Below are positions 6,120 to 22,317 of a DNA stretch of 48,539 nucleotides, piece after piece. The position numbers and the translations under genes are program-made. Every line of letters begins with the position of its first letter. Position 1 is the stretch's first letter. Source of the stretch: a virus. The stretch is taken from positions 1 through 48,539 of the IMG/VR virus record IMGVR_UViG_3300024520_000006; one strand, 5' to 3'. The notes under the pieces were generated by a model. It made no database searches. It was not told the DNA's origin and saw nothing but the letters and a program-made list of their open reading frames with translations.

Positions 6120-6869
6120 ATGGGTAACAAGTCTAAAAGAGGGCCAAAGCCTGTCACTGTTTCAATAGGGTATTGTCACCCTGAGCATGTGTCGGCTTTT
6201 TTTCATGACTCCCTTATAGGTTTGTTACAAAGAGAATGGCACAGAGTACAAGGAATTATCTCTGTGCTATCAGGCCCTAAAGTGGATATGGCTCGTAACC
6301 ATATCATGAAGCGATGGCTTAAAAGTACCGATACTGATTACCTCCTGATGGTAGACACTGACATGGTATTACCGCCTGATACCCTTGATATTCTTATTAA
6401 CCATGATAAAGACATAGTAGGCGGTCTATGTTTTTCTGGCATGGGTTCGGGTGGTTCAGTTAAGCCTGTCATCAAAGTAATAGAGGAAAACGAAATACTA
6501 GTCCTATGGGATTACCCTACTGATACCCTTGTCCAAGTAGCCGCAACAGGAGCAGCATGTGTCCTTATCAAGAGGAAAGTAGCAGAGGGTGTATGGCAAG
6601 CGAGAGGCAAGGACCACCCTATGCCTTGGTTTGCTCACGGTATGCACAAGAACGTCCAGATAGGCGAAGATGTAGCCTTCTGTTTAACCGCTGGCAAAGT
6701 CGGATACGAGGTATGGGTAGATACTGGCCTCATTATTCCACACGTTAAGCCAAGGCTAATAGCTGATGGGGACTACGTTATCTCTCTATCAAGGGAAGAC
6801 CATCCTAACTATGAGTATCGAGAAAAGGTACCAATATATCAGGAGATCCTAGATGGCAACTCTGACTAG
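6120..6869 (+). CDS. GT-A fold (family-2-like) glycosyltransferase
   Basis: DYLLMVDTDMVLPPD (DxD), DIVGG, GAACVLIKRKV, PWF....GEDVAFC: the order and spacing are typical of GT2 enzymes. Confidence 0.75.
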   Translation: MGNKSKRGPKPVTVSIGYCHPEHVSAFFHDSLIGLLQREWHRVQGIISVLSGPKVDMARNHIMKRWLKSTDTDYLLMVDTDMVLPPDTLDILINHDKDIVGGLCFSGMGSGGSVKPVIKVIEENEILVLWDYPTDTLVQVAATGAACVLIKRKVAEGVWQARGKDHPMPWFAHGMHKNVQIGEDVAFCLTAGKVGYEVWVDTGLIIPHVKPRLIADGDYVISLSREDHPNYEYREKVPIYQEILDGNSD

Positions 6870-12723: not shown

Positions 12724-13547
12724 TTACCTTTCTCGGCTCGTTCTATTTTCCTCACCAACTTGGGGATGGTGACATTGTAGGCATGACGAGGAAGCCACGG
12801 TTTGCTTGCGCCTAGTGGTGTTACTCGTTCGCCAACCAATAGGTCAGGGTCTCTGAAAGTTACCCCATACCTTATTGTGTCGGATTCTTCATCTATCTCC
12901 TCTCCTTCCTCATCTTCCAAAAATGTTCTTGCCAGAATGCTGGGCTTTTCGGTCACAAAACTGCGGATCGAAGGCGAGAAATCTGGTACCTTATCAACAC
13001 CAAGTTTCTCAGCTTGTTCCTCATTCAATGTGCGTTCCTGAGCGGTATAGATAAGGTGCATGTTTCTAGTCTGACACACTTCTTCCAATTCCTCCATGAA
13101 CTCAGTAATGAGAGTACCCAGCCTACCCCACGTTCGTTGATCTGTGGTACCAGGTGACCGTGCTTCATCCCTAGCTTCCTCATCTTTGTTGATATACCTG
13201 AGGCCTACTCTGACAAGGGCAGACATGGTATCTACTACCACAGTTTGTCTGTCGTGATCCGCATACCTCAGGTAGTGGATGAAGTCATAGGTGTCTTTCC
13301 AACGTAGTGGACGATACGTCCCATCTTTATTACGTGGAAATACCTGAAGGTCCTTCTGTTTACGGACAGTCATTGTGCCCTTCTCTGCCTCAAGTAAAAT
13401 AACTTTAGGGCCCGTACATGCAAGGGCTGTCTTACCTGACTTCACTCTACCCCATACCATCATATAGATAAGAGAGGGTGATGTGGTAACTGGTACTATT
13501 CTCGATTCAACCAGTTTGATTCTGCGTTCCCGTTTACTGTCTGCCAA
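12720..13547 (-). CDS. Sak4-like RecA-fold ATPase (AAA_24-type recombination protein)
   Basis: Walker A in MVWGRVKSGKTALA, Walker-B-like TVVVDTMS; ATGA overlap with the downstream gene; classic ATPase/SSB/exonuclease neighbourhood. Confidence 0.7.
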   Translation of the reverse strand: MADSKRERRIKLVESRIVPVTTSPSLIYMMVWGRVKSGKTALACTGPKVILLEAEKGTMTVRKQKDLQVFPRNKDGTYRPLRWKDTYDFIHYLRYADHDRQTVVVDTMSALVRVGLRYINKDEEARDEARSPGTTDQRTWGRLGTLITEFMEELEEVCQTRNMHLIYTAQERTLNEEQAEKLGVDKVPDFSPSIRSFVTEKPSILARTFLEDEEGEEIDEESDTIRYGVTFRDPDLLVGERVTPLGASKPWLPRHAYNVTIPKLVRKIERAEKGK

Positions 13548-14547
13548 GTTTCCTCCCTTCCAGGTAAGTACTCGGCTGATACTTTGTTCTCCTCATAAAC
13601 TTTCCGTCTCCTCCCATGAGTTCTACCATACAAAGTTCGTGGTAATCACAATCCCAATCACAGGACATAATCATGGTACGAGTCCAAGGGTCCTCATCAT
13701 TATCTTCCATGAAGTCATACCAAGCGGCCATCTCTTGCATGGTATAGTCAAGCTCCTCGACCAGACGATTCTCTATTTCCTTGGGCTTAACTATCTTGGT
13801 CCTCTTGAAATACTGATTGGAACCCTTGAGCGTACGGAGTTGTGTCTTCCATCTGTCTGGTATGTTTGGCCAGTCTTCCGAATAGTATTCTTTGAGGAAG
13901 GTAGCAAGGGTGTAGTAGTCAGTGTCCATACGCCGCTTACTGATTGACCCATCCTGATTGATTGTCGGTATCGTTGGTGGCTTCGTCTTGATGTAGTTGT
14001 ACCCAAATGTATCTACCTCTAAGCCTGCGATACGCAAACCCCAAGGGTATAACCCAGATTGTAGATCCTGCATCCTGAACTCAGCGGATGGCACAGACTT
14101 CGTGGTCTTATGGTCCCACACTATTGTTTGCTTTAGTACCTTGTCATAAACTATGAGATCAGGCTTGAAAGAAAACTCATGGCCATTAGGGTGCTCGACT
14201 ATGAAGGTCTCCTCAACATGGAGAATCTCCCAGTCCTTGTCATCGTCCTTCCAGTGATAGAGGTAGGCTTTAATCATCCGCTCTACTTCACTGGGTAGAT
14301 CCCCGTAGAACTCTCGTTCCTCAAGTAGAAGGGTATTGAATTTCTTAGTCAAAGCCTTATGGGCTATTCGCCAATCCCTACCCATGTAATGGTACTGGAG
14401 ACATTCGTGCATCCATGTACCTCTACGAAGTGGCAAGGATGGGAGTCTTGTTTCCAAACCTTCGACCATACTGTAATAGTACTGCCGCTTACATCGCCTA
14501 AACTTCTTAGCCGACGATGGAGATATTTTGATGAGGGTTTCTTCCAT
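13534..14547 (-). CDS. Cas4/RecB-family PD-(D/E)xK exonuclease with Fe-S cysteines
   Basis: FKPDLIVYD...IVWDHKTTK nuclease core; N-terminal Cys (RCKRQYYY) plus C-terminal CDWDCDYHELC, as in Cas4/AddB-type clusters. Confidence 0.75.
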   Translation of the reverse strand: MEETLIKISPSSAKKFRRCKRQYYYSMVEGLETRLPSLPLRRGTWMHECLQYHYMGRDWRIAHKALTKKFNTLLLEEREFYGDLPSEVERMIKAYLYHWKDDDKDWEILHVEETFIVEHPNGHEFSFKPDLIVYDKVLKQTIVWDHKTTKSVPSAEFRMQDLQSGLYPWGLRIAGLEVDTFGYNYIKTKPPTIPTINQDGSISKRRMDTDYYTLATFLKEYYSEDWPNIPDRWKTQLRTLKGSNQYFKRTKIVKPKEIENRLVEELDYTMQEMAAWYDFMEDNDEDPWTRTMIMSCDWDCDYHELCMVELMGGDGKFMRRTKYQPSTYLEGRKLGRQ

Positions 14548-14606: not shown

Positions 14607-17030
14607 TTACAGTTCAATGGCCCCTTCAGACCAGAACTTTCCAACCTTGACATCAGCCTTAATCGGCACGGTCAATAGGCATTCAAACTCTTTTTCCAGG
14701 GGAAGGTTTTCCATCACCTCTACAATACGAGGAATGACATCATCCAGTGCTTCTTCCCGAATCTCAAAGAGGATAGAGTCATGAACCGTCCCAATTACTT
14801 TAGCCACAGATTCATCAAGCTCACCGTTTAGTTGGACCATGGACATCAACATCATATCCGATGCCATAGACTGGACTGGTGAATTGATAGCCTGACGTTC
14901 AGCCTCCCCTCGGATTCCTTGTTCCTTAGAGTTGATGTCCCACAGATGTCTCTTCCTACCTATGGGTGACATAACGTACTGCCTGCGTTGGGCGGCTCTC
15001 CTCTGTCTACCATGCCATGGGTACAAACCTCTAAAGTTCTGGAAGAATGAGTCCCGATAATTCTTTGCCTCTGCATCGGTAACATCTATACCGTAGTTGG
15101 TCTTGGAATACTCTACGAATTTCCGGTAACCCATTCCATATACGAACCCGAAGTTGACAGCCTTGGCCTTCTTTCTAATCTCCTGTGTAATTTCAGGTCG
15201 AGAGAGGCCAGTCGTTGCCATAGCTGTTTCGGTATGGATGTCCCGACCGAGGTGGTAGGCTCGTAGCATTGTTTTATCCTGGGAAACGTGAGCCACAATT
15301 CTGAGTTCGACTTGGGAATAATCCGCCTCAACAATTCGCCATCCCCTACGACCTCCAATGATGCCTCGTATAAAGGTGTCTCTAGGGACTTGTTGCAGGT
15401 TAGGGTTAGAGGATGAGAGTCTACCTGTAACTGTATGGAACGGCTTGAAGGTAGAGTGTAAACGACCTCTTCCGTCCATTCGCTGAGCCCAGTTCTCAAA
15501 GTAACGAGAACGGTATCCATTCCATTTTCTATATTCGAGGATGGCATCTATCACTCCACTTTCATCTAGATCATTGAGCCTGACTAGTACGTCCTCTGCT
15601 GTAGAGGGTTGGCCAGACGGTGTTGCTTTCAAAACAGGGAACTCCATCTTGCTATACAGAAGGCGTCCCAATTGCTGTGGACTGTTCGGATTGAATGGTC
15701 TCATTTCTGAAGGAACAAACTCTTGGATCAGTTCAACCTGTTCCTCAATGTTTTTCTCGGTCTTGGCTCGGCGTGCATTGAACTTCTCTCTGTGGATAGG
15801 TACGCCCCGTATTTCTACATCAGTTAAGGTATTCACAGCGGGCATCAGTAGCTTACGAAAGAGCCTGTTTGATAGAGGCTCAGCCTTCAGTTTCTTTTCA
15901 AGCTTGAGGCCTAATCTCAAGGTGTAATCTGCATCCTGCCCACCATACTCAACCAAATCATTCAATGGGGTAAGGTTAGTATGTTTCTTATTGAGGAGGT
16001 CTTTGTAAGCAGGGGCACCAAGATATACCTGCGATGCAAACCCAAGATCCTTACGGTTGTTTTCATCCAGTGCATAGATAGCACCCATGGTATCGAAGTA
16101 TTGCCGCACGTTAATACCCATAGCATGGAACCATTCTTCATCGAACTTCCCATTGTGCATGTACCATTTACCAGACTCAATGTAAGGTTTGAGAAGGTCT
16201 ATCACCTTCTGTGGGTTTTTCCATCGAGAACCTTCAGTCCACAGTGGTATGACATAGGCTCGACCAGGGGTAACCGATATGTTAATTGCGGATAGCTTGG
16301 CAGTTGAATCCCAAGGATAGAGACCACCGAACTCATGTTCCGACCAAGTCTCAAGGTCTATTGCTCCTCGCTTTGCCTTCTTGAGGTCTGCAATCAGGGC
16401 GCCAAGAGTTTCCTTGTTATTGACCGCTATACTACGGGTAGCTGGAATACCTTCTTCGTCATACACTAGCCTCTTGAATACTAGCAGGGCCCCCCTAAAG
16501 GCGTCTAGGTATCTTGGATTACGGAGGACGGCGGCTGGCTGTAGAGCAGCCACGAAGGTAGCACCTCCGTATTCATAGCTTGTACCGTTACGGCTCGTAA
16601 TCCCTTTGAGGCCCAGTGTCGCCTTGAGACCGCTGTTTCCAAGAGCGAGTCCAAACTTTGGCCTGATTCGTTGAACCTCTCTCTGGAGATAGAGATCCGA
16701 ACAGACTCGTATTTCCCTGTCCGTAGGTGAGCGGTAATCTTCAGGTCTACATTTAACCGCTCCGGATATGAAGAAGTTGGTTTTGTCAAGGCCTATCCTT
16801 TCTAGTTCTTCCCATAGGAAGCTTGATTCTACGATCGACGGGTCAGTAGCCACAACCATAAGACGTCCATGAGAGTCGTCTTTAGTAGGGATGGTTATGG
16901 GTGAACATATCTCATAAGCCTCCTCATGGAGAGGACACTCAGAACACTCGGGATCCTCTAACTTTGTTAGTGTGGATCTCAGCTTCCCAAAGGAGGTCTT
17001 TGCCTTCTTGTTTTCGGTACTCGTTCCCAT
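14607..17030 (-). CDS. Family-A DNA polymerase with 3'-5' exonuclease and an N-terminal degenerate family-4 UDG-like domain
   Basis: Pol motifs ADYSQVELRIVAH (A), RKKAKAVNFGFVYGMG (B), TVHDSILFE (C); exo motif AIDLETWS. N-terminal ~190 aa align to family-4 UDG (CSECPL...AVKCRP...VC...QPAAVLRNP). Strong SD GGGAGGTGA precedes the ATG. Confidence 0.9.
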   Translation of the reverse strand: MGTSTENKKAKTSFGKLRSTLTKLEDPECSECPLHEEAYEICSPITIPTKDDSHGRLMVVATDPSIVESSFLWEELERIGLDKTNFFISGAVKCRPEDYRSPTDREIRVCSDLYLQREVQRIRPKFGLALGNSGLKATLGLKGITSRNGTSYEYGGATFVAALQPAAVLRNPRYLDAFRGALLVFKRLVYDEEGIPATRSIAVNNKETLGALIADLKKAKRGAIDLETWSEHEFGGLYPWDSTAKLSAINISVTPGRAYVIPLWTEGSRWKNPQKVIDLLKPYIESGKWYMHNGKFDEEWFHAMGINVRQYFDTMGAIYALDENNRKDLGFASQVYLGAPAYKDLLNKKHTNLTPLNDLVEYGGQDADYTLRLGLKLEKKLKAEPLSNRLFRKLLMPAVNTLTDVEIRGVPIHREKFNARRAKTEKNIEEQVELIQEFVPSEMRPFNPNSPQQLGRLLYSKMEFPVLKATPSGQPSTAEDVLVRLNDLDESGVIDAILEYRKWNGYRSRYFENWAQRMDGRGRLHSTFKPFHTVTGRLSSSNPNLQQVPRDTFIRGIIGGRRGWRIVEADYSQVELRIVAHVSQDKTMLRAYHLGRDIHTETAMATTGLSRPEITQEIRKKAKAVNFGFVYGMGYRKFVEYSKTNYGIDVTDAEAKNYRDSFFQNFRGLYPWHGRQRRAAQRRQYVMSPIGRKRHLWDINSKEQGIRGEAERQAINSPVQSMASDMMLMSMVQLNGELDESVAKVIGTVHDSILFEIREEALDDVIPRIVEVMENLPLEKEFECLLTVPIKADVKVGKFWSEGAIEL

Positions 17031-17355
17031 AGTTCACCTCCCTTATTCCTGCATTGATAACTAATTGGGCACAGGAAATACAAGGTAAGTGAGTGGTATA
17101 TAAGACCGAACCATTGGTAGATATTCCATGCTTGGCTGCGAACACAATGGCGTTTGCCTCAGCATGTACTGACCTATCACAAGCTGTAAGGTCATCGTGT
17201 GTGCAATGAAGTAACCCAGCAGGTGCCCCATTGTATCCTGTGGAAACGATTCTCTTGTCCTGTACCAGTACGGCACCTACATGCAGGCGTTTACAGGTAG
17301 AGTACATCGCCACCACTTTAGCTATATCTAAATAGGCAATGTCATCCATGCTCAT
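16939..17355 (-). CDS. dCMP (deoxycytidylate) deaminase
   Basis: HAEANAI ... PCISCA zinc motifs with typical spacing. The ORF-track start at 17382 is a TTG, so the first ATG (MSMDD) at 17355 is preferred. The 3' end overlaps the polymerase start by 92 nt. Confidence 0.85.
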   Translation of the reverse strand: MSMDDIAYLDIAKVVAMYSTCKRLHVGAVLVQDKRIVSTGYNGAPAGLLHCTHDDLTACDRSVHAEANAIVFAAKHGISTNGSVLYTTHLPCISCAQLVINAGIREVNYGNEYRKQEGKDLLWEAEIHTNKVRGSRVF

Positions 17356-18091
17356 TTTGTAACCTTTCAATTTCGGGCTCAAAGATATGGAGGGAAGATA
17401 TGTGCATAACGAGTGGTCCCATATCCACGTTCATCATGTGTGCCAAGTGTTGTTGAAGGCGGGCGGTCATATACACATCGTCCCTGAAATAGCGGAACCA
17501 ATCACATGACCTCATGTAGTACACAACCTTGAGTTTGCCATCCCTAAGAAGGAAGTGATATCCAAGAGTACATGGCACTCTCTCACCCAGTACATCAGCG
17601 GCATACAAATCCTCAGGAAACCACACTGGTAGATATGCTTGGCGTGTATGGGGTCTCATCATAAGGAGAGACTTGAGGTTATCTAGTGTGCCATAATCAA
17701 ATCGAATACCTGCCCTGTGAGGAGGATAATATCTCTCCATATAGGTATGGCTAAATAGCCCTCCACCCTTGTGTTCCTCTACTCCCTGTTCATACCAAGG
17801 CCAGTTCTTGTACTGTTCACCAGGGTTCAAAGGGTTACCAGACATACGTTCTTGGAAGTGATCCTCTGCCCATGGGAGATTTGGCTTAATGGAAAATTGG
17901 AGTTGGTCTACAGTACTGGGTACTCTGTTCCATTTGAAAGAAACATCTTCCAACTCAAAGGTCTTAGTCATAGGTAAATCAGGATCACGGAATGACTGCC
18001 ACTCACCTACATCTACAACCTCACCATGTTCTATGAAGTCAAGGCCTATATTCTCAAGTATTCTACCGAACCAGTCTTCCCTATAGTACAT
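17342..18091 (-). CDS. ThyA-superfamily pyrimidine 5-modifying enzyme, dCMP-hydroxymethylase-like (Asp at the base-selecting position)
   Basis: RQAYLPVWFPEDL, nucleophile VPCTLGY, LLRDGKLKVVYYMRSCDWFRYFRDD, SSLHIF. Cys-to-Asp spacing is 31 residues, as in T4 gp42 (C148-D179) and E. coli ThyA (C146-N177), both recalled from memory. Confidence 0.75.
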   Translation of the reverse strand: MYYREDWFGRILENIGLDFIEHGEVVDVGEWQSFRDPDLPMTKTFELEDVSFKWNRVPSTVDQLQFSIKPNLPWAEDHFQERMSGNPLNPGEQYKNWPWYEQGVEEHKGGGLFSHTYMERYYPPHRAGIRFDYGTLDNLKSLLMMRPHTRQAYLPVWFPEDLYAADVLGERVPCTLGYHFLLRDGKLKVVYYMRSCDWFRYFRDDVYMTARLQQHLAHMMNVDMGPLVMHISSLHIFEPEIERLQNEHG

Positions 18092-18650
18092 TCTTTACCC
18101 TTCCGTGTACTCCCAAGAAACTACCCCTTGGGTTATCAAACCACCACCCTTGTAAGTTGTGGCGCTTAATGAATCTGGTTGTATCACTATCCTCTATTGA
18201 GTCATGGAATGTATCGTGTACCAGTAACATAGAATGAGGTGGCGAGTGATTGAACCACAGACTCAACTCTTCCTTCCTACGTGAAGGTTCTGAATCCAGA
18301 ATTACAAAGTCCGCTGTCACCATATCTAAGTAACCCGGTTGGCCTAACTCATAATTAAACTGTGGAGATGGAGGAACATTCTCCACCATATCTAACCATC
18401 TCTCCTGATGGTCAAAGGTTATTAGTCTCTGAGTATCTTTCATAACACTTAGGACCCTACGAGTTACATACCCCTGACCTAGTCCTGTCTCTATGATAGT
18501 GGCTGTATCATGGAGGGATTTTGTTACATACTTAGCCACATTACAGAACTCCAACTCAGGGCTCATGATATTCCAAGCATTGAATCCTGTCCACTTACCT
18601 GAGAACTCCACTTCATCTACCAATGGGGCCTCGTTAACCCAAGGATTCAT
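18081..18650 (-). CDS. Class-I SAM-dependent methyltransferase-fold protein, substrate unknown
   Basis: Motif I IIETGLGQGYVT, acidic post-beta-2 TFDHQE, ADFVILDSEP; resembles small-molecule O-methyltransferase-type (Methyltransf_24-like) proteins; overlaps both neighbours. Confidence 0.6.
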   Translation of the reverse strand: MNPWVNEAPLVDEVEFSGKWTGFNAWNIMSPELEFCNVAKYVTKSLHDTATIIETGLGQGYVTRRVLSVMKDTQRLITFDHQERWLDMVENVPPSPQFNYELGQPGYLDMVTADFVILDSEPSRRKEELSLWFNHSPPHSMLLVHDTFHDSIEDSDTTRFIKRHNLQGWWFDNPRGSFLGVHGRVKNVL

Positions 18651-19479
18651 AGTAACCTTCTACCTTCCCAAAGTTTAGCTCTCCCACTGGAGTAGAAGGA
18701 ACGAAAATCCCCTGTTGATATTCCTCATAGCGTCTGCGGATTCGTTTGAATGGCCCGTACAGTTCTTCCTCTACTGTCTTACCATCTCGTTCAAACTCCA
18801 GAACTTTTTGCCACCATCGGTCAATGGATTTCCAAGTAGGAGTAACGGGCTCACACAAAGTCAGTTCTTCCATCAAATCTGGCTGAGTATAAAGGTAAGG
18901 GAGACATTTAAAACTATGGAGTTGCATTACGTCCAAGTGCCACTGGAGACGAATACGCTCGGGCGAACCTTCACTGATTTCCCTTGCGAGAACATGGACA
19001 AGAGCCATGTCCAAGCCAAGCATGTAGGCATTGTAACTAACCCTAGAGTGTATGGTGAGCGTAGGTATGACCTTGTCATTTCTATCTGATCCTCGGAAGG
19101 TGGCTGCCAACAAACAATTACCCCACTTATGCTTTCGGTCGGAGCGGGTAACGTGCTTGAAGTGGACGTTTGTGATAACTCCGTTCCTACCCTTATCTTC
19201 GAGGATGATTCGTGACCGCTTGATAAACTCGGCAGTTTCATATCCGTCGAGGTATTCCCTTGTAAGTCTCGTCCAGCGGGATGGGTTAAGCCATACTTCC
19301 TGGAGGTCAAATTCGTATGCCATTGAGTCAGCCTCCAAAATGACATTGTTAAGGTTTGTACCGATACCCAGTTCAAGGTCTACCTCCTCTTTATCTAAAT
19401 GCCAGCGGGTAACATCATGCCACAGTTGAGTTTGATCTTTGGCTCGGAGTACTTTAAAGCTCATGGCTAGACCACTCAT
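18634..19479 (-). CDS. ~281-aa uncharacterised enzyme, possibly a second, highly divergent ThyA-fold protein
   Basis: KWGNCLLAATF ... TLTIHSRVSYNAYMLGLDMALVHVLA can be laid over ThyA APCHAFFQF ... [27 protein letters not shown] by eye. Start is uncertain (ATGs at 19491, 19479, 19464); 19479 has GGTGGTGA upstream. Confidence 0.45.
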   Translation of the reverse strand: MSGLAMSFKVLRAKDQTQLWHDVTRWHLDKEEVDLELGIGTNLNNVILEADSMAYEFDLQEVWLNPSRWTRLTREYLDGYETAEFIKRSRIILEDKGRNGVITNVHFKHVTRSDRKHKWGNCLLAATFRGSDRNDKVIPTLTIHSRVSYNAYMLGLDMALVHVLAREISEGSPERIRLQWHLDVMQLHSFKCLPYLYTQPDLMEELTLCEPVTPTWKSIDRWWQKVLEFERDGKTVEEELYGPFKRIRRRYEEYQQGIFVPSTPVGELNFGKVEGYYESLG

Positions 19480-19876
19480 GGTCACCACCATGGTTAAGGT
19501 CTAGGGTGCAGTACTGATAAGGCCCATAGCCTCTGAAATTTCCACAAGCAAATGGCTTTCCAGTCTCTGGATACTTGATCCAGTCCCTGTCCTTTACCTC
19601 TCCCCATGCAGACTCAAGGCAACCCGATAATTGATAGCCATTAGTGTTGCAGTAACTGGCAAGGTAGATCATGATGTCACCAATTGCGTCTACTGCTGCT
19701 GCTCGGTGCTCCTGTGAGGTGCCTCTGATCTGTTGCTGTGCTTTAAGGTGTGCGTGTGCTAGCTCTCCGACTTCTTCAGTCAACCCTAATAGCGCATCGT
19801 GCGCCTGTTGATTGGGGAAATTATGACTCAACCACTCCAGATGCTCATTCTGAAATTCATGTAGGTCATGCATCAT
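19454..19876 (-). CDS. mazG: MazG-like all-alpha nucleoside triphosphate pyrophosphohydrolase
   Basis: LTEEVGELAHA and AVDAIGDIMIYL metal-binding helices, about 140 aa; overlaps both neighbours. Confidence 0.8.
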   Translation of the reverse strand: MMHDLHEFQNEHLEWLSHNFPNQQAHDALLGLTEEVGELAHAHLKAQQQIRGTSQEHRAAAVDAIGDIMIYLASYCNTNGYQLSGCLESAWGEVKDRDWIKYPETGKPFACGNFRGYGPYQYCTLDLNHGGDHEWSSHEL

Positions 19877-20510
19877 TGATGATCTCCTTACCTTTGTCTA
19901 TGTAGTATTGGTCAGGCTGGTCTACTGGAAACAAACCTTTTGGCTGGAAAAGTGATTCAATCCTGTGGGCTACATACCTCACCCGAGATTCACCATAATC
20001 CCAGAATCCCATTTGATATCCGTCGTACTTCATGAGGAGAGAGACCATGTTGTAGGTCGCAGCTACCTTCTCCCTATGCTGATAGATGTGGTTACCTCTG
20101 GGATCAGTATTACTACCACGATATGGCTTATTGGTGGAAGTCATAATAGTAAGAGTATCAGGATGCTTTAACCTGTGGAGAGATTGGAGAGGGTTACGAA
20201 GGCGAGTGAATCCTCGTATCACAGGACCATATATAAGCTCGGATATTTCAGGTGTGCGATCCAGTATATAAATCTTCCCACTCCTATGGGACCGCTCTAT
20301 ATGTTGGGCATTCCATTCGTTCCAAGTTTCATCCCATTCCTTCATCCTACCTGATGGTGATTTGACGTACTGGCATAGGTCGGGACCCATCCACCCAGCC
20401 AAAGCATAGGCAAGGGTTGTCTTTCCACTGGAGTCGGGACCTTCTAGGATAATTGTTGCCACGTTCTGCTCACTTTCTGAGATTCGTAGTGTAATATACC
20501 ACTGTTTCAT
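19866..20510 (-). CDS. P-loop (d)NMP kinase, thymidylate-kinase-like
   Basis: Walker A ILEGPDSSGKTT, LDRTPEISELIYG resembles the Tmk DR(Y/F)..S motif; ATGA overlap with the SNF2 gene. Confidence 0.7.
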   Translation of the reverse strand: MKQWYITLRISESEQNVATIILEGPDSSGKTTLAYALAGWMGPDLCQYVKSPSGRMKEWDETWNEWNAQHIERSHRSGKIYILDRTPEISELIYGPVIRGFTRLRNPLQSLHRLKHPDTLTIMTSTNKPYRGSNTDPRGNHIYQHREKVAATYNMVSLLMKYDGYQMGFWDYGESRVRYVAHRIESLFQPKGLFPVDQPDQYYIDKGKEIINDA

Positions 20511-21949
20511 CTGTCAACTACGAGGAGTTCCGGATCATCCATAACTAATTTCTCCAGATTCTTCTTCTGACGGAGAGCTTTGAATACCAAGCCATCTATC
20601 GTGTTGACCATATGCAGGTGGTAGAATGTTACTGGTGTTTTTTGTCCTGCTCTATCGAGTCGTCCCCTTGATTGGACATAGTGATCCCAGCTATAGTCGG
20701 TTGAGTAGTAGATGGCATGTGAACAGGCATGTTGTAATCCGTCGAGTGCTTCACCCGCAGCGATCTGGATGACAAGGATTCTGGTCGCATCTTGCTTCCT
20801 AAAACTATCAACCGCTTCTTTCCTCCCTTTAGCCGTGATGCCACCTCTAATTTGAACCAAGCCATAGCGGCTAAGTCCATCTCTGATTTGGTTAAGTTCC
20901 CATTTGAATCTGGCAAAAATAATCACCTTCTCTTGTGCTTCCATAAGGTCATCTACTAAACTGAATAATACGGCTAACTTATCTCTCTGGAAATCAACGA
21001 CCTCACTCAACTCATCGTGGATGGATCCGCTTGTCATCTCTTGTAGTCGAAGGAGTTTGGTCAGTACAATTGGGGCGTCTATCAGGTGACGTTTCCATAC
21101 TACCATCCCATCTTCTGCAAAGGAATCGTATGCTGACCGAGCCGACTTGTTCATAACCACAGGGATGATCTCGTCGGTTACAGGAGGGAGGTCAAGGCAA
21201 TCTCTCTTCCGTGCCGTAGATATCCATGGACGATATCGTTCTTGAAGGTCTTCCACGTTTTGGTAACCTCGAAGTTCGTATCCTGTACGCCCACCCCACA
21301 TACCGTAGCGGTAACGGAATCGGGTCCAAGACATAGCATCACCTTTGACTGGGTCACGCCATATCTTCGGATCAATAACCTTGAGTTGACTATAAAGGTC
21401 CAGATAGTTCTTACTGACAGGCGTCCCCGAAAGGAGGCAAACGTGCCTAGCTCGGGATCCCAAACGGTGAGTAGCTTTGGACCTCTTAGCTGTGGCGGAC
21501 TTAACTTTCTGGCTTTCGTCGAGGATGAGTAGGTCGGCATCATATTCCTCCAGTGCTTGCATGATGGCCCAGTCTTTGTCTCTCTTGATTGCGGCTTCGT
21601 AATTGAGGATAATAAACCGAAGCGGAGAACTTCGATCTCCATACCACTCAATTTCTTCTCGGATTTGATCTGCCTTTTCTATTACTTTTCCCTGTGGTAT
21701 CAGGGTACTTTGATGTACCCCAAGATGTTTTTCCATTTGTGCTGGCCATACTTGCATAGCATTGATGGGGCACAGAACAAGTACCTTGAGACCACCCTCC
21801 TTTAGATACAAGGCAGCGGCGAAGTCAAGGGCTGTTTTCGTCTTGCCCGTTCCAGGCTCCCAAAACAACGCTCCACTGCCCTGTTTCCAAAGCCTCTTAA
21901 GACCCCTCCGCTGGTGCTTAAAAGGCTTGGACTTAAATCGGTACTTCAC
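20507..21949 (-). CDS. SNF2-family (superfamily 2) helicase/translocase
   Basis: Motif I WEPGTGKT, motif II LILDESQKVK, motif VI QSRGRLDRAGQ. Confidence 0.85.
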   Translation of the reverse strand: MKYRFKSKPFKHQRRGLKRLWKQGSGALFWEPGTGKTKTALDFAAALYLKEGGLKVLVLCPINAMQVWPAQMEKHLGVHQSTLIPQGKVIEKADQIREEIEWYGDRSSPLRFIILNYEAAIKRDKDWAIMQALEEYDADLLILDESQKVKSATAKRSKATHRLGSRARHVCLLSGTPVSKNYLDLYSQLKVIDPKIWRDPVKGDAMSWTRFRYRYGMWGGRTGYELRGYQNVEDLQERYRPWISTARKRDCLDLPPVTDEIIPVVMNKSARSAYDSFAEDGMVVWKRHLIDAPIVLTKLLRLQEMTSGSIHDELSEVVDFQRDKLAVLFSLVDDLMEAQEKVIIFARFKWELNQIRDGLSRYGLVQIRGGITAKGRKEAVDSFRKQDATRILVIQIAAGEALDGLQHACSHAIYYSTDYSWDHYVQSRGRLDRAGQKTPVTFYHLHMVNTIDGLVFKALRQKKNLEKLVMDDPELLVVDR

Positions 21950-22317
21950 ATGCCATCACCCAGTTTGCGGCGATTGTACTCATCTATAACTCTGTTATCC
22001 ACAGCTAGATGTTCACCCTCAAGTAGGTATTCAAACCCCATCTCTTTGGATAGGGATATCAACTCTATGGTACGTTGATTAGCGGGCGTGATTACTGGCT
22101 CATCATCAGCTAGTGGTTGGTTGGGCCAGTCAGGGTGTTCACTTGGGGACCTACTTGATATAATTCCCACCATTGTATCATCATCAACCGTTACTGTGGA
22201 ATACTCTACGTCCGACGCATCGACTTCCTCCTCAGTAGCAAGAACCATAACTGCTGTTAGATCCTCAATTACCTCTATTAATTGGTCGATCTTATCCTCT
22301 AAACTCATCCTCCCCAC
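21946..22317 (-). CDS. 123-aa acidic protein, unknown function
   Basis: ORF overlaps both neighbours by 4 and 13 nt in a coupled operon; no motif recognised. Confidence 0.65.
   Translation of the reverse strand: MGRMSLEDKIDQLIEVIEDLTAVMVLATEEEVDASDVEYSTVTVDDDTMVGIISSRSPSEHPDWPNQPLADDEPVITPANQRTIELISLSKEMGFEYLLEGEHLAVDNRVIDEYNRRKLGDGM

Follow-up and report, generated by a model that had tools for sequence, protein, structure and literature searches.

Two ThyA-like enzymes, one from a widespread uncharacterized family, in a viral module that probably makes an unusual pyrimidine

In metaviromes, a gene neighborhood composed of a deaminase, a ThyA with aspartate at the position of Escherichia coli Asn177 (Asp177), a PRA-PH/MazG protein, and DNA polymerase A (PolA) is statistically tied to cytosine-modified contigs (PMC8670742; bioRxiv 10.1101/2024.12.05.627091). 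In this MetaGPA work, a ThyA lay no more than 3 kb from 70% of the deaminases on cytosine-modified contigs and from 6% of those on unmodified ones; of the deaminase-near ThyAs, 85% were of the dCMP type, and PRA-PH and PolA were listed as neighbors. Published mutagenesis and metavirome studies treat the Asn177 position as the switch between dCMP and dUMP specificity, and the metavirome ThyA homologs that were tested produced 5-methyl-dCMP, not 5-hydroxymethyl-dCMP. Since this neighborhood is already in the literature for cytosine-modified (5mC-type) contigs, the kind of system is known. Here we describe such a locus in the window, the whole 48,539-nucleotide stretch of viral DNA that was analyzed (IMG/VR record IMGVR_UViG_3300024520_000006). 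One of its two ThyA-like enzymes belongs to a widespread, as yet uncharacterized family, and because such a family is part of the module, the phage probably produces a pyrimidine of an unusual kind. The candidate outcomes are 5-methylcytosine, 5-hydroxymethylcytosine, thymine made by a dCMP route, and 5-hydroxymethyluracil (5-hmU). Tentatively, a 5-substituted cytosine in virion DNA is the most likely.

As the original prediction had claimed, six co-oriented, overlapping genes on the minus strand span positions 16939 to 20510, directly upstream of a UDG-exonuclease-PolA gene (Table 1). All six proposed family or fold assignments were confirmed by Pfam and PHROG profiles or, for the methyltransferase (MTase) and ThyA2, by AlphaFold and Foldseek, and every quoted motif was found (HAEANAI, PCISCA, IIETGLGQGYVT, EEVGELAHA, DAIGDIMIYL, GPDSSGKTT, and LDRTPEISELIYG). 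Adjacent genes overlap by 4 nt (SNF2/kinase), 8 nt (kinase/MazG), 26 nt (MazG/ThyA2), 17 nt (ThyA2/MTase), 11 nt (MTase/ThyA1), 14 nt (ThyA1/deaminase; 41 nt with the TTG start), and 92 nt (deaminase/PolA). A Shine-Dalgarno-like purine run lies within the preceding gene for all module starts except that of the kinase, for which an ATGA stop-start overlap provides the coupling; strong Shine-Dalgarno sequences precede the MazG gene (AAGGAG) and the PolA ATG at 17030. The module genes are translationally coupled to one another and to PolA, a point in favor of modified cytosine. Coupling had been proposed for a unit of six genes; the coupling held, but the unit is longer, extending at least from a small gene (21946 to 22317) that precedes the SNF2 helicase through PolA (14607). 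The same-strand block extends from a primase (24633) to an SSB-like gene (11986). Promoter-like and terminator-like sites between 13 and 25 kb did not exceed shuffled controls. The genome had been described as podovirus-like; judged by their names or taxonomy, the cultured phages with the same module are siphoviruses.

Table 1. Genes of the module and its immediate neighbors in the window
Product	Length (aa)	Coordinates	Strand	Basis or remark
SNF2-family helicase, upstream neighbor		20507..21949	-	SNF2-rel_dom, Helicase_C
Tmk-like P-loop deoxynucleoside-monophosphate kinase	214	19866..20510	-	PHROG 761
MazG-type all-alpha NTP pyrophosphatase	139-140	19454..19873/19876	-	PHROG 715
ThyA2, divergent ThyA-fold protein	281	18634..19479	-	AlphaFold/Foldseek; start as in public gene calls
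Accessory class I catechol/CCoA-type O-methyltransferase-fold protein	189	18081..18650	-	AlphaFold/Foldseek
ThyA1, ThyA-family pyrimidine C5 transferase, cytosine-type active site	249	17342..18091	-	PF00303
dCMP-deaminase-family zinc deaminase	136-147	16939..17355 (ATG) or 16939..17382 (TTG)	-	PF00383
DNA polymerase A + 3'-5' exonuclease + N-terminal family-4 UDG-like domain	807	14607..17030	-	DNA_pol_A
Cas4/PD-(D/E)XK-type exonuclease, downstream neighbor		13534..14547	-	PHROG 1218

ThyA1 matched PF00303 with an E value of 1.6e-10 (41 bits; cutoff, 24.3). Its best single-sequence PDB match was MilA (E, 4e-10), and its family profile matched AfhB (7e-15), MilA (3e-14), thymidylate synthase (TS; 8e-14), and T4 dCH (1.5e-8). 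The nearest solved relatives, MilA and AfhB, use CMP or dCMP, which again favors modified cytosine. Cys146, Arg166, Ser167, Asp169, Tyr94, and His207 are retained; Asn177 is changed to Asp, Leu143 to Arg, Arg127 to Gln, His147 to Thr, Glu58 to Asn, and Tyr209 to Phe, and the chain stops about 17 residues past His207, without the C-terminal tail. Asp occupies the Asn177 position in the window ThyA1 and in all relatives examined (61/61 and 80/80), and the combination of Asp177, Arg143, Gln127, and a missing tail is invariant across about 140 ThyA1 relatives. In TS, this tail closes over folate and is required for its recognition; T4 dCH, like ThyA1, has no such tail. The enzyme of the 5mC phage Xp12 has 63 residues after His207, compared with a median of 12 in the ThyA1 clade. 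MilA, a CMP 5-hydroxymethylase (PDB 5b6d/5jnh), resembles ThyA1 in its Asp at 177 and in the C-T pair that follows the position of the catalytic Cys, but it differs in carrying Asp at Leu143 and in using a ribonucleotide substrate in a bacterial antibiotic pathway (mildiomycin biosynthesis). The Asp at the Asn177 position bears out the claim that the ThyA-like genes are not ordinary TS. The proposed T4-style hydroxymethylase was not supported: its marker, an acidic residue at Leu143, is replaced by an invariant Arg, and the tested metavirome homologs made the methylated product. Since this marker is absent and Glu58 is replaced, the chemistry of ThyA1 may differ from that of any characterized ThyA.

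ThyA2 matched no Pfam or NCBIfam family and corresponds to PHROG 13667, "unknown function" (E, 1.4e-31); its nearest BFVD matches are labeled "uncharacterized protein." The predicted second, very divergent ThyA-like protein is nevertheless real. Its AlphaFold model (pLDDT, 92.4; pTM, 0.90) was searched against the PDB with Foldseek, and the top 50 matches were all ThyA-superfamily enzymes, led by the dCMP hydroxylase AfhB (9iqu; E, 1.5e-6), MilA, TS, and T4 dCH. Profile-profile comparison gave no sequence signal, a point against modified cytosine. Across the family (304 clusters at 50% identity; E ≤ 1e-3), the invariant residues include Cys122, Arg146, Asp157, and His188, whose spacing resembles that of ThyA Cys146/Arg166/Asn177/His207 when they are placed on ThyA numbering by predicted secondary-structure order and spacing. 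The position inferred to correspond to Asp169 is Tyr in the window lineage and Glu in the Serbin-type branch; the two branches align with an hhalign probability of 97%.

The two ThyA-fold genes form a near-constant pair. Searches through ThyA2 yielded 59 loci, 2 of them on contigs that end before the ThyA1 position; in the other 57, ThyA2 is always upstream of ThyA1, as it is in 66 of the 73 loci found through ThyA1. Overall, ThyA2 precedes ThyA1 in 90% or more of the loci, among them those of over 85 cultured actinophages. In these phages the pair is annotated only as "thymine synthesis," which counts against modified cytosine, and we found no report of modified DNA from them in the literature. 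Cultured carriers of the pair include Gordonia phages Cozz and Azira, Streptomyces phage Zuko, and Serratia phage Serbin. In the relative Manatee Spring (MW202455), a true ThyX (PF02511; E, 1e-58) adjoins the pair, so the purpose of the pair is not the formation of dTMP from dUMP. We consider it quite likely that the substrates of the ThyA1-ThyA2 pair are cytosine nucleotides and that the pair is not ordinary TS. An ordinary salvage or dTTP-supply cassette, in which ThyA1 would be a normal TS and ThyA2 a decayed paralog, would agree with databases that label ThyA1 "thymidylate synthase" and the gene set "thymine synthesis." However, the invariant features of ThyA1 and the ThyX of Manatee Spring argue against it, and a Cys/Arg/Asp/His set kept invariant over about 300 ThyA2 clusters indicates that ThyA2 is not decaying. 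On sequence grounds, this explanation is already disfavored, and we regard it as very improbable.

The O-methyltransferase is a lineage-specific add-on and not a core step, contrary to its suggested role as one of two extra enzymes of the pathway. The gene is sporadic: it was found in none of the 59 loci identified through ThyA2, and its homologs number only 18 among 5.8 billion proteins, those in other phages having unrelated gene neighborhoods. The junction at which it sits is an insertion hot spot. The protein scores just under the Methyltransf_24 cutoff (26.1 versus 26.3 bits), and its AlphaFold model (pLDDT, 92.7) superposes on the cation-dependent class I O-methyltransferases SafC, COMT, CCoAOMT, and TomG and on the tRNA ho5U O-methyltransferase TrmR (Foldseek E, 1e-9 to 5e-8; TM, ~0.65), with just 9 to 17% sequence identity. 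It carries no hallmark of any DNA base methyltransferase family.

The kinase matched PHROG 761, "thymidylate kinase" (E, 6.8e-13); NCBIfam dTMP kinase was matched only at the P-loop (E, 0.009), outside of which no PDB sequence match was found. From these profiles it looks like a thymidylate kinase and not like T4 gp1, a point against modified cytosine. A homolog was detected at the corresponding place in roughly half of related loci. The MazG protein matched PHROG 715, "MazG-like pyrophosphatase" (E, 1.9e-11), and, weakly, MazG-like proteins and human/mouse dCTP pyrophosphatase 1 in the PDB (E, 0.02 to 0.03). The deaminase (PF00383 E, 1.8e-23; PHROG 174 E, 8e-50) has the zinc motifs HAE and PCxxC. 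PolA contains DNA_pol_A (326 bits), exonuclease (58.8 bits), and UDG (47.6 bits) domains, and its N-terminal domain matched Thermus UDG 1ui0 (E, 5.6e-12), with Gln in place of the motif-B His. In related loci, the presence of the deaminase correlates with a UDG domain on PolA; one subgroup has the ThyA pair and kinase and no deaminase. The SNF2 gene (SNF2-rel_dom E, 3e-21; Helicase_C E, 5e-10) keeps its place in most related loci whose sequence reaches far enough upstream, and the Cas4-type exonuclease (PHROG 1218, "exonuclease"; E, 1e-57) follows PolA in most of those that reach far enough downstream and also in cultured phages. A single-sequence query found no DHFR in the window.

Palindromes containing C/G are strongly avoided in the window. 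CGCG occurs twice (40.6 expected), GATC 179 times (249 expected), and CCGG 78 times (116 expected), and AACGTT, ATCGAT, and TGTACA are absent (~10 expected for each). The mean z score is -2.84 for 4-mer palindromes and +0.19 for nonpalindromes, whereas in the 5mC phage Xp12 the mean z is +1.24, with no general avoidance of 4-mer palindromes. Because DNA that is fully 5mC or 5hmC withstands 82 to 90% of type II enzymes, avoidance of C/G palindromes would not be expected in a genome with every cytosine modified; their strong depletion argues against fully protected cytosines. The claim of a 5-substituted pyrimidine in virion DNA is supported only in part: the dCMP-type ThyA1 and the neighborhood tied to modified contigs favor it, but palindrome avoidance speaks against full cytosine replacement.

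Unprotected cytosines would suit an alternative thymidylate supply, in which dCTP would be converted to dCMP by MazG, to 5-methyl-dCMP by ThyA1/ThyA2, to dTMP by the deaminase, and to dTDP by the Tmk-like kinase, bypassing dUMP and leaving virion DNA canonical. The type of kinase and the annotation used in the field agree with this route, and a study of 5mC-selective deaminases proposes that those encoded in cis with Asp177 ThyAs convert 5mdCMP to dTMP. UDG activity in or beside the module points to selection for uracil exclusion, and the deaminase co-occurs with the PolA UDG domain. However, published data show the neighborhood enriched on contigs surviving modified-cytosine selection, the conserved second ThyA-fold enzyme would have no role, ThyA1 lacks the tail linked to hydride transfer (that is, methyl formation), and the DHFR query was negative. 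Relatives lacking the deaminase keep the pair, indicating that it is useful even without a dTMP-making step. We judge this supply route unlikely.

Less likely still is replacement of some or all thymine by 5-hmU or a derivative, with ThyA1/ThyA2 forming 5-hydroxymethyl-dCMP, the deaminase converting it to 5-hydroxymethyl-dUMP, and the Tmk-like kinase, which suits a uracil-type base, phosphorylating the latter. In vivo, 7 of 90 metavirome deaminases beside dCMP-type ThyAs converted 5hmdC to 5hmdU, tail-less ThyA1 is closer to hydroxymethylases than to methylases, and UDG-PolA fusions are typical of modified-thymidine phages (SPO1, SP10, SP-15, and YerA41). Palindrome avoidance is also consistent with 5-hmU DNA, which is still cut by ~92% of type II enzymes. 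Against this, neither a 5-hmU DNA kinase nor an aGPT-Pplase domain was detected in the six proteins, the acidic hydroxymethylase residue at Leu143 is absent, and the UDG-like domain has its motif-B substitution. The hydroxymethylase of known hmU phages is dUMP specific (Asn177), and the literature consulted thus offered no precedent for the 5-hydroxymethyl-dCMP route. We therefore consider thymine replacement improbable.

The observed folds, active-site residues, gene pairing, and synteny are best explained by rewiring at the cytosine level. A pre-replicative module would reshape the pyrimidine pool at the monophosphate stage, with two ThyA-fold enzymes, almost always found together, at its center; these would bind cytosine nucleotides rather than dUMP. 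The MazG-type pyrophosphatase would take dCTP back to its monophosphate and would probably do the same with dUTP. ThyA1, with its catalytic Cys, folate-binding Asp169, and Asp at the base-specificity position, would transfer a one-carbon unit onto C5 of dCMP and so make either 5-hydroxymethyl-dCMP or 5-methyl-dCMP. ThyA2, which has its own Cys/Arg/Asp/His set and no Asp169, may be a hetero-oligomer partner of ThyA1 or may perform a second step on its product. The modified dNMP would be phosphorylated by the Tmk-like kinase, with host NDP kinase completing the triphosphate route, the deaminase would shunt some of the (modified) dCMP toward thymine, and the coupled PolA would incorporate the product. 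We infer these substrates and this product, as well as the ThyA1-ThyA2 partnership and the DNA modification.

Among known systems, the flavin-dependent 5-hydroxy-dCMP synthases (RB69 gp48, DLP3 gp80, and HY126 AfhB; PMC13326640; PDB 9iqu/9iqc) have a ThyA fold, a dCMP substrate, and nonfolate chemistry, and AfhB is the best PDB match for both the ThyA2 model and the ThyA1 profile. Their structural similarity to ThyA2 is only distant (TM, 0.41 to 0.52), and their diagnostic Asp169-to-Asn change is missing: ThyA1 has Asp, and ThyA2, at the inferred position, has Tyr (Glu in the other branch). The predicted parallel to the T4 hmC pathway (gp42, gp56, gp1, cd, and td) is apparent in the enzyme set, since a ThyA homolog acting on dCMP (in the window, by prediction), a pyrophosphatase that removes dCTP (likewise predicted), a dNMP kinase, and a dCMP deaminase are common to both, as are two ThyA-family genes per genome. 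However, gp42 has Asp at Leu143, Glu60, and Arg-Arg where ThyA1 has Arg, Asn, and Arg-Gln; the window pyrophosphatase is MazG type and the kinase Tmk-like; and td is a dUMP-type TS, which the second ThyA-fold protein of the window is not. The Xp12/Pamexvirus 5mC pathway shares with the window an Asp177 ThyA, an adjacent dCMP deaminase, an NTP pyrophosphohydrolase, PolA, and a Cas4-type nuclease in the replication module. Xanthomonas phage Xp12 has a single ThyA that retains Arg126-Arg127 and the long C-terminal tail, encodes DHFR, and lacks the 4-mer palindrome avoidance; in the window there are two ThyA-fold genes, ThyA1 carries Arg143/Gln127 and has no tail, and DHFR was not detected. The MetaGPA papers describe no second ThyA-fold partner, and their characterized example, mSCD-B5, has an Xp12-like ThyA; the MetaGPA neighborhood shares with the window its genes, the Asp177 signature, and a deaminase directly adjoining ThyA and PolA.

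All six open reading frames of the original prediction were found on the minus strand where it had placed them, and its product assignments, made from sequence alone, were correct for each of the six.

Genes of the module, from the kinase to the deaminase (window coordinates)
Product	Position	Strand	Basis or remark
Tmk-like kinase	19866-20510	-	PHROG profile, E 6.8e-13
MazG-type pyrophosphatase	19454-19876	-	PHROG profile, E 1.9e-11
ThyA2, 281 aa	18634-19479	-	Start as in public gene calls; ThyA fold by predicted structure
MTase-fold protein	18081-18650	-	Predicted structure resembles cation-dependent O-methyltransferases
ThyA1	17342-18091	-	PF00303, 41 bits
Deaminase	16939-17382 (TTG start) or 16939-17355 (ATG start)	-	PF00383, E 1.8e-23

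From the SNF2 helicase/kinase junction to the ThyA1/deaminase junction, successive genes overlap by 4, 8, 26, 17, 11, and 14 nt. A Shine-Dalgarno-like run lies inside the preceding gene for every module start but that of the kinase, which is coupled to the gene before it through an ATGA overlap. In a search for an internal promoter or terminator that might split the unit, promoter-like and terminator-like sites showed no excess over shuffled controls. The coupling originally proposed stands, but its limit to six genes does not, since the coupled unit reaches at least from the DNA polymerase gene (PolA) back to a small gene that precedes the SNF2 helicase. A same-strand block wider than this unit runs from a primase-helicase through a Cas4-type exonuclease, a Sak4-like protein, and an SSB-like protein. 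Searched at the nucleotide level against 50,697 phage records, the region matched none, so relatives are detectable at the protein level only.

ThyA1 exceeds the curated PF00303 cut-off (24.3 bits), with an alignment covering residues 136-246 only. Its active-site residues were read from an alignment with E. coli ThyA (whose numbering is used), T4 gp42, and the Xp12 enzyme. Cys146, Arg166, Ser167, Asp169, Tyr94, and His207 are retained, and this catalytic set is invariant or nearly so in 61 plus 80 relatives, the exceptions being one Asp169->Glu and one Ser167->Ala change. The substitutions are Asn177->Asp, Leu143->Arg, Arg127->Gln, His147->Thr, Glu58->Asn, and Tyr209->Phe, and about 17 residues follow His207, compared with 57 in E. 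coli, 30 in T4 gp42, and 63 in Xp12. Asp177, Arg143, and Gln127 occur together in 61/61 sequences adjoining a ThyA2 gene and in all 80 loci found via ThyA1.

In published work, Asn177->Asp switches specificity from dUMP to dCMP, hydroxymethylases are recognized by an acidic residue at Leu143, and 5-hydroxy-dCMP synthases are recognized by Asp169->Asn. ThyA1 departs from canonical thymidylate synthase (TS) at position 177 (Asp for Asn), 58 (Asn for Glu), and 127 (Gln for Arg) and has its approximately 17-residue end in place of the folate-closing C-terminal tail. With these residues and the missing tail, ThyA1 is not an ordinary TS. Compared with the T4 gp42-type dCMP hydroxymethylases (dCH), ThyA1 shares Asp177 and a short C terminus, but position 143 is an invariant Arg rather than Asp or Glu, and position 83, which is not Trp in that type, is Tyr, Trp, or Phe. 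Xp12-type dCMP methyltransferase also has Asp177, but ThyA1 has no TS-like tail and carries Arg-Gln instead of Arg126-Arg127; single-sequence searches of the window found neither DHFR (Xp12 DHFR query) nor ThyX. The 5-hydroxy-dCMP synthase type (RB69 gp48 or the phage dCMP hydroxylase AfhB) does not fit, since Asp169 is kept in 139/141 sequences. By published marker residues, ThyA1 is not a clean fit to the hydroxymethylase, methylase, or hydroxylase class. By family-profile distance, AfhB, MilA, and TS are about equally far from ThyA1, and T4 dCH is further. Because only the Asp177 marker is present, with neither the Leu143 nor the Asp169 marker, and because AfhB, MilA, and TS are about equally distant, ThyA1 is assigned to a distinct, predicted cytosine-type subfamily whose product is not readable from known markers. 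The C-terminal tail of TS is needed for hydride transfer, and since ThyA1 is missing this tail, we lean toward a hydroxymethyl-type or other non-methyl product.

ThyA2 gave no sequence match in Pfam, NCBIfam, a PDB phmmer search, a PDB profile search, or hhalign against the ThyA alignment. When its predicted model (pLDDT, 92.4; pTM, 0.90) was compared with the PDB in Foldseek, the top 50 matches all belonged to the ThyA superfamily (TM, 0.41 to 0.52), with AfhB first (E, 1.5e-6), followed by MilA, thymidylate synthases, and T4 dCMP hydroxymethylase. In a viral structure library, the nearest matches were "uncharacterized" proteins. Structure prediction thus confirms the proposal of a divergent second ThyA-like protein, on which sequence searches alone were silent. 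Cys122, Arg146, Asp157, His188, and several Arg, Tyr, and Trp residues (ThyA2 numbering) are invariant across 26 to 59 homologs. These residues were mapped to ThyA by predicted order and spacing. The predicted strand-hairpin-helix-strand order agrees with that of ThyA, and the spacings Arg146-Asp157 (11) and Asp157-His188 (31) match Arg166-Asn177 (11) and Asn177-His207 (30). Because order and spacings run parallel, ThyA2 probably also has Asp at the base-specificity position. The inferred counterpart of Asp169, which is folate binding in ThyA, is Tyr149 in ThyA2 and Glu in a branch typified by Serratia phage Serbin; the Asp169->Asn change of 5-hydroxy-dCMP synthases is absent at this position. 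The family comprises 304 clusters at 50% identity among 1.84 billion representatives. Judged by sequence conservation, ThyA2 is a conserved partner and not a relic.

Among cultured phages, 85 genomes carry ThyA2, every one of them from an actinophage (Gordonia, 68; Mycobacterium, 9; Streptomyces, 4; Microbacterium, 2; and others), and the surrounding gene order is always helicase, kinase, MazG, ThyA2, ThyA1, deaminase, PolA, and Cas4 nuclease. The more divergent branch occupies the same position in Serbin and a Manatee Spring phage; the window and Serbin-type branches align with an hhalign probability of 97% (E, 1.2e-10), and the Cys, Arg, and Asp are conserved. ThyA1 lies downstream in 57/57 IMG/VR loci found via ThyA2 that include its position, two more contigs (59 loci in total) ending before that point and standing outside the count. 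Conversely, a ThyA2-family gene lies upstream in 66 of the 73 loci found via ThyA1 with enough upstream DNA. ThyA1 and ThyA2 are therefore a near-obligate gene pair, which suggests that they act as a complex or in two steps of one pathway.

The loci vary around the pair. In the Manatee Spring phage (MW202455), a genuine ThyX (L003:1839-2495; PF02511; E, 1e-58) shares one operon with ThyA2-type and ThyA1-type genes, and there, too, a deaminase ORF missing from the annotation runs into the start of PolA. Loci L017, L018, L020-L023, L025, L039, and L062 carry the pair, usually with the kinase, and have no deaminase; PolA in this subgroup is only about 615 aa long and is without the UDG-like domain. 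Since relatives that are deaminase-less are also UDG-less, the deaminase and the UDG domain come and go together. In the window, this putative family-4 UDG-like domain comprises the N-terminal ~190 aa of PolA (16461-17030, minus strand), with four Cys spaced as for a family-4 iron-sulfur cluster, a His->Gln change in motif B ("LQPAAVLRNP" versus "FHPAYLLRNP" in Thermus), and "ATDPS" in the motif-A region. The deaminase and PolA frames share 92 nt (16939-17030, both on the minus strand), and the PolA ATG is preceded by a strong Shine-Dalgarno sequence, AAGGGAGGTG. Similarly long deaminase/PolA overlaps were also seen in Serbin and IMG/VR relatives, and automated annotation of public contigs with identical sequence leaves the deaminase out. 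In the PDB, MazG weakly matches dCTP pyrophosphatase 1, and it has no match to the Pfam PRA-PH model.

The MTase-fold protein scored 0.2 bits below the cut-off of Methyltransf_24. The structure predicted for it (pLDDT, 92.7) superposes on SafC, COMT, CCoAOMT, TomG, and TrmR, a tRNA 5-hydroxyuridine O-methyltransferase (best fold match E, 1e-9), and an "ETGxGQG" motif and invariant Asp119 and His145-Asp146 mark putative SAM and metal sites. No homolog was found in 59 related loci, even where ThyA2 is 77 to 79% identical, and only 18 were found among 5.8 billion proteins. A few of these probably sit beside ThyA2 of close relatives as well; others lie among early genes, beside glycosyltransferases, or near NAMPT. 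Absence from the 59 loci and rare homologs in unrelated contexts rule out the MTase as a core modification enzyme. It is an accessory gene, so the proposal that two extra enzymes extend the chemistry beyond 5-hmC survives for ThyA2 and fails for the MTase. Near one MTase copy, on a related contig that likely has a ThyA2 gene, lies a WhiB-domain protein gene (L070:1559-1930), a hint that this phage group infects Actinobacteria.

At the ThyA2-ThyA1 junction, relatives (L019-L057) carry an Endonuclease_7/HNH gene, a LAGLIDADG homing endonuclease, family-4 UDGs, or a winged-helix protein (for example, L047:5837-6169, L050:4002-4388, and L033:5857-6393). The UDGs are free-standing, with GEAPG and HPAY motifs intact, and the winged-helix protein, which recurs, also has a coiled coil. 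Because the inserted genes vary in this way, the junction is an insertion hot spot. Elsewhere in the window, a candidate glycosyltransferase of the GT-A type (249 aa; 6120-6869, plus strand) is encoded immediately downstream of the gene for the major head protein. It matches PHROG 34859 "glycosyltransferase" (E, 2.3e-12) and, weakly, Pfam Anp1, and it contains "VDTD," which resembles a DxD motif; its target may be virion proteins or DNA. A homolog with 57% identity occurs on IMG/VR contig 3300025324_000018, where the ThyA pair is found too.

We consider it likely that cytosine nucleotides are the substrates of the pair and that it is no ordinary TS, and plain nucleotide salvage is highly improbable as the role of the module. 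Whether the virion DNA is modified was weighed against palindrome usage. CGCG occurs twice in the window versus 40.6 times expected under a Markov model, an approximately 20-fold depletion. GATC (179 versus 249 expected), CCGG (78 versus 116), and GGCC (140 versus 181) are also strongly avoided, as are CATG and GCGC, and AACGTT, ATCGAT, and TGTACA are absent (about 10 expected each); A/T-only palindromes show no avoidance. The mean z was -2.84 for 4-mer palindromes and +0.19 (sd, 1.7) for other 4-mers, whereas in the 5mC phage Xp12, analyzed identically, 4-mer palindromes were not avoided overall (mean z, +1.24). Fully 5mC or 5hmC DNA resists 82 to 90% of type II enzymes, and 5-hmU DNA only about 8%; palindrome avoidance therefore favors unprotected cytosines. 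These could reflect canonical DNA, with dTMP made via 5-methyl-dCMP, or a thymine-side modification arising by deamination of 5-hydroxymethyl-dCMP. The first, a dUMP-free route to dTMP, is possible but not probable. Several points count for modified DNA: the Asp177 signature with its published association, the coupling to PolA, the relative with a true ThyX beside the pair, and the relatives keeping the pair without a deaminase. Replacement of thymine by a 5-hmU-type base is compatible with the avoidance and is clearly unlikely. A 5-substituted cytosine in the virion DNA draws on the same favorable evidence, and the strong avoidance of C/G-containing palindromes counts against it; we hold it to be the likeliest of these outcomes, though somewhat short of an even chance. 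The avoidance could also be inherited or due to partial substitution.

A more specific proposal is that ThyA1 and ThyA2 constitute a two-component system, hetero-oligomeric or sequential, making a 5-substituted pyrimidine nucleotide undescribed in DNA, with ThyA2 chemistry new to the superfamily. As a joint reading this is a speculative and improbable one. At C5, ThyA2 might then work by, for example, a flavin-dependent or nucleophile-exchange mechanism; in the window lineage, the inserted O-methyltransferase might decorate the product further, to methoxy- or methoxymethyl-cytosine, for instance, and the glycosyltransferase candidate could perhaps also decorate the base. If true, an unrecognized DNA base would exist in hundreds of phage lineages, including more than 85 phages of Gordonia, Streptomyces, Microbacterium, and Mycobacterium that are in culture. 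Phage base modifications determine which restriction and CRISPR defenses succeed and have been a source of tools, among them 5mC-selective deaminases and hydroxymethylases. The question is directly testable because many carriers are cultured (the SEA-PHAGES collection and Serbin). Modified DNA would mean a new activity for a textbook enzyme family and re-annotation of hundreds of phage genomes; canonical DNA would establish a dUMP-free thymidylate route.

Literature searches on Gordonia phages of the CT/CV clusters and on related phages found no report of modified DNA, and the actinophage community labels these genes "thymine synthesis." The thymidine hypermodification set (Asn177 hydroxymethylase, 5-HMUDK, and aGPT-Pplase) was not matched: ThyA1 has Asp177, and the six proteins contain no such Pfam domains at E<=0.1. 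As candidate counterparts of the dCTPase, the modified-dNMP kinase, and the post-replicative glucosylation of T4-type dC replacement, which also keeps dCTP out of DNA, the window has the MazG-type pyrophosphatase, the Tmk-like kinase, and the GT-A glycosyltransferase candidate. In the MetaGPA metavirome work, 70% of dCMP deaminases on contigs enriched for modified cytosine, versus 6% on unmodified ones, had a ThyA homolog within 3 kb, 85% of those deaminase-linked ThyAs were predicted 5hmdC or 5mdC makers, and PRA-PH-type pyrophosphatases and PolA were other common neighbors; 5/7 tested ThyAs made 5-methyl-dCMP, which deaminases turn into dTMP (PMC8670742; 10.1101/2024.12.05.627091). The window matches this neighborhood, with a deaminase, an Asp177 ThyA, MazG, and PolA co-oriented within 6 kb. 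Xp12 and its relatives share this layout but have a single ThyA plus DHFR. Since both arrangements have been described, the kind of system is already known, as is the core logic of dCMP-type ThyA, deaminase, pyrophosphatase, and kinase. The MetaGPA and Xp12 papers and our literature searches nowhere mention a second ThyA-fold protein or a clade with Arg143, Gln127, and no tail. Compared with these systems, the module is real and coherent, and its new, widespread feature is the ThyA1/ThyA2 pair: a large clade, overlooked until now, in which a ThyA1 with an unusual active site (Arg143, Gln127, tail-less) is accompanied by an uncharacterized ThyA-fold partner.
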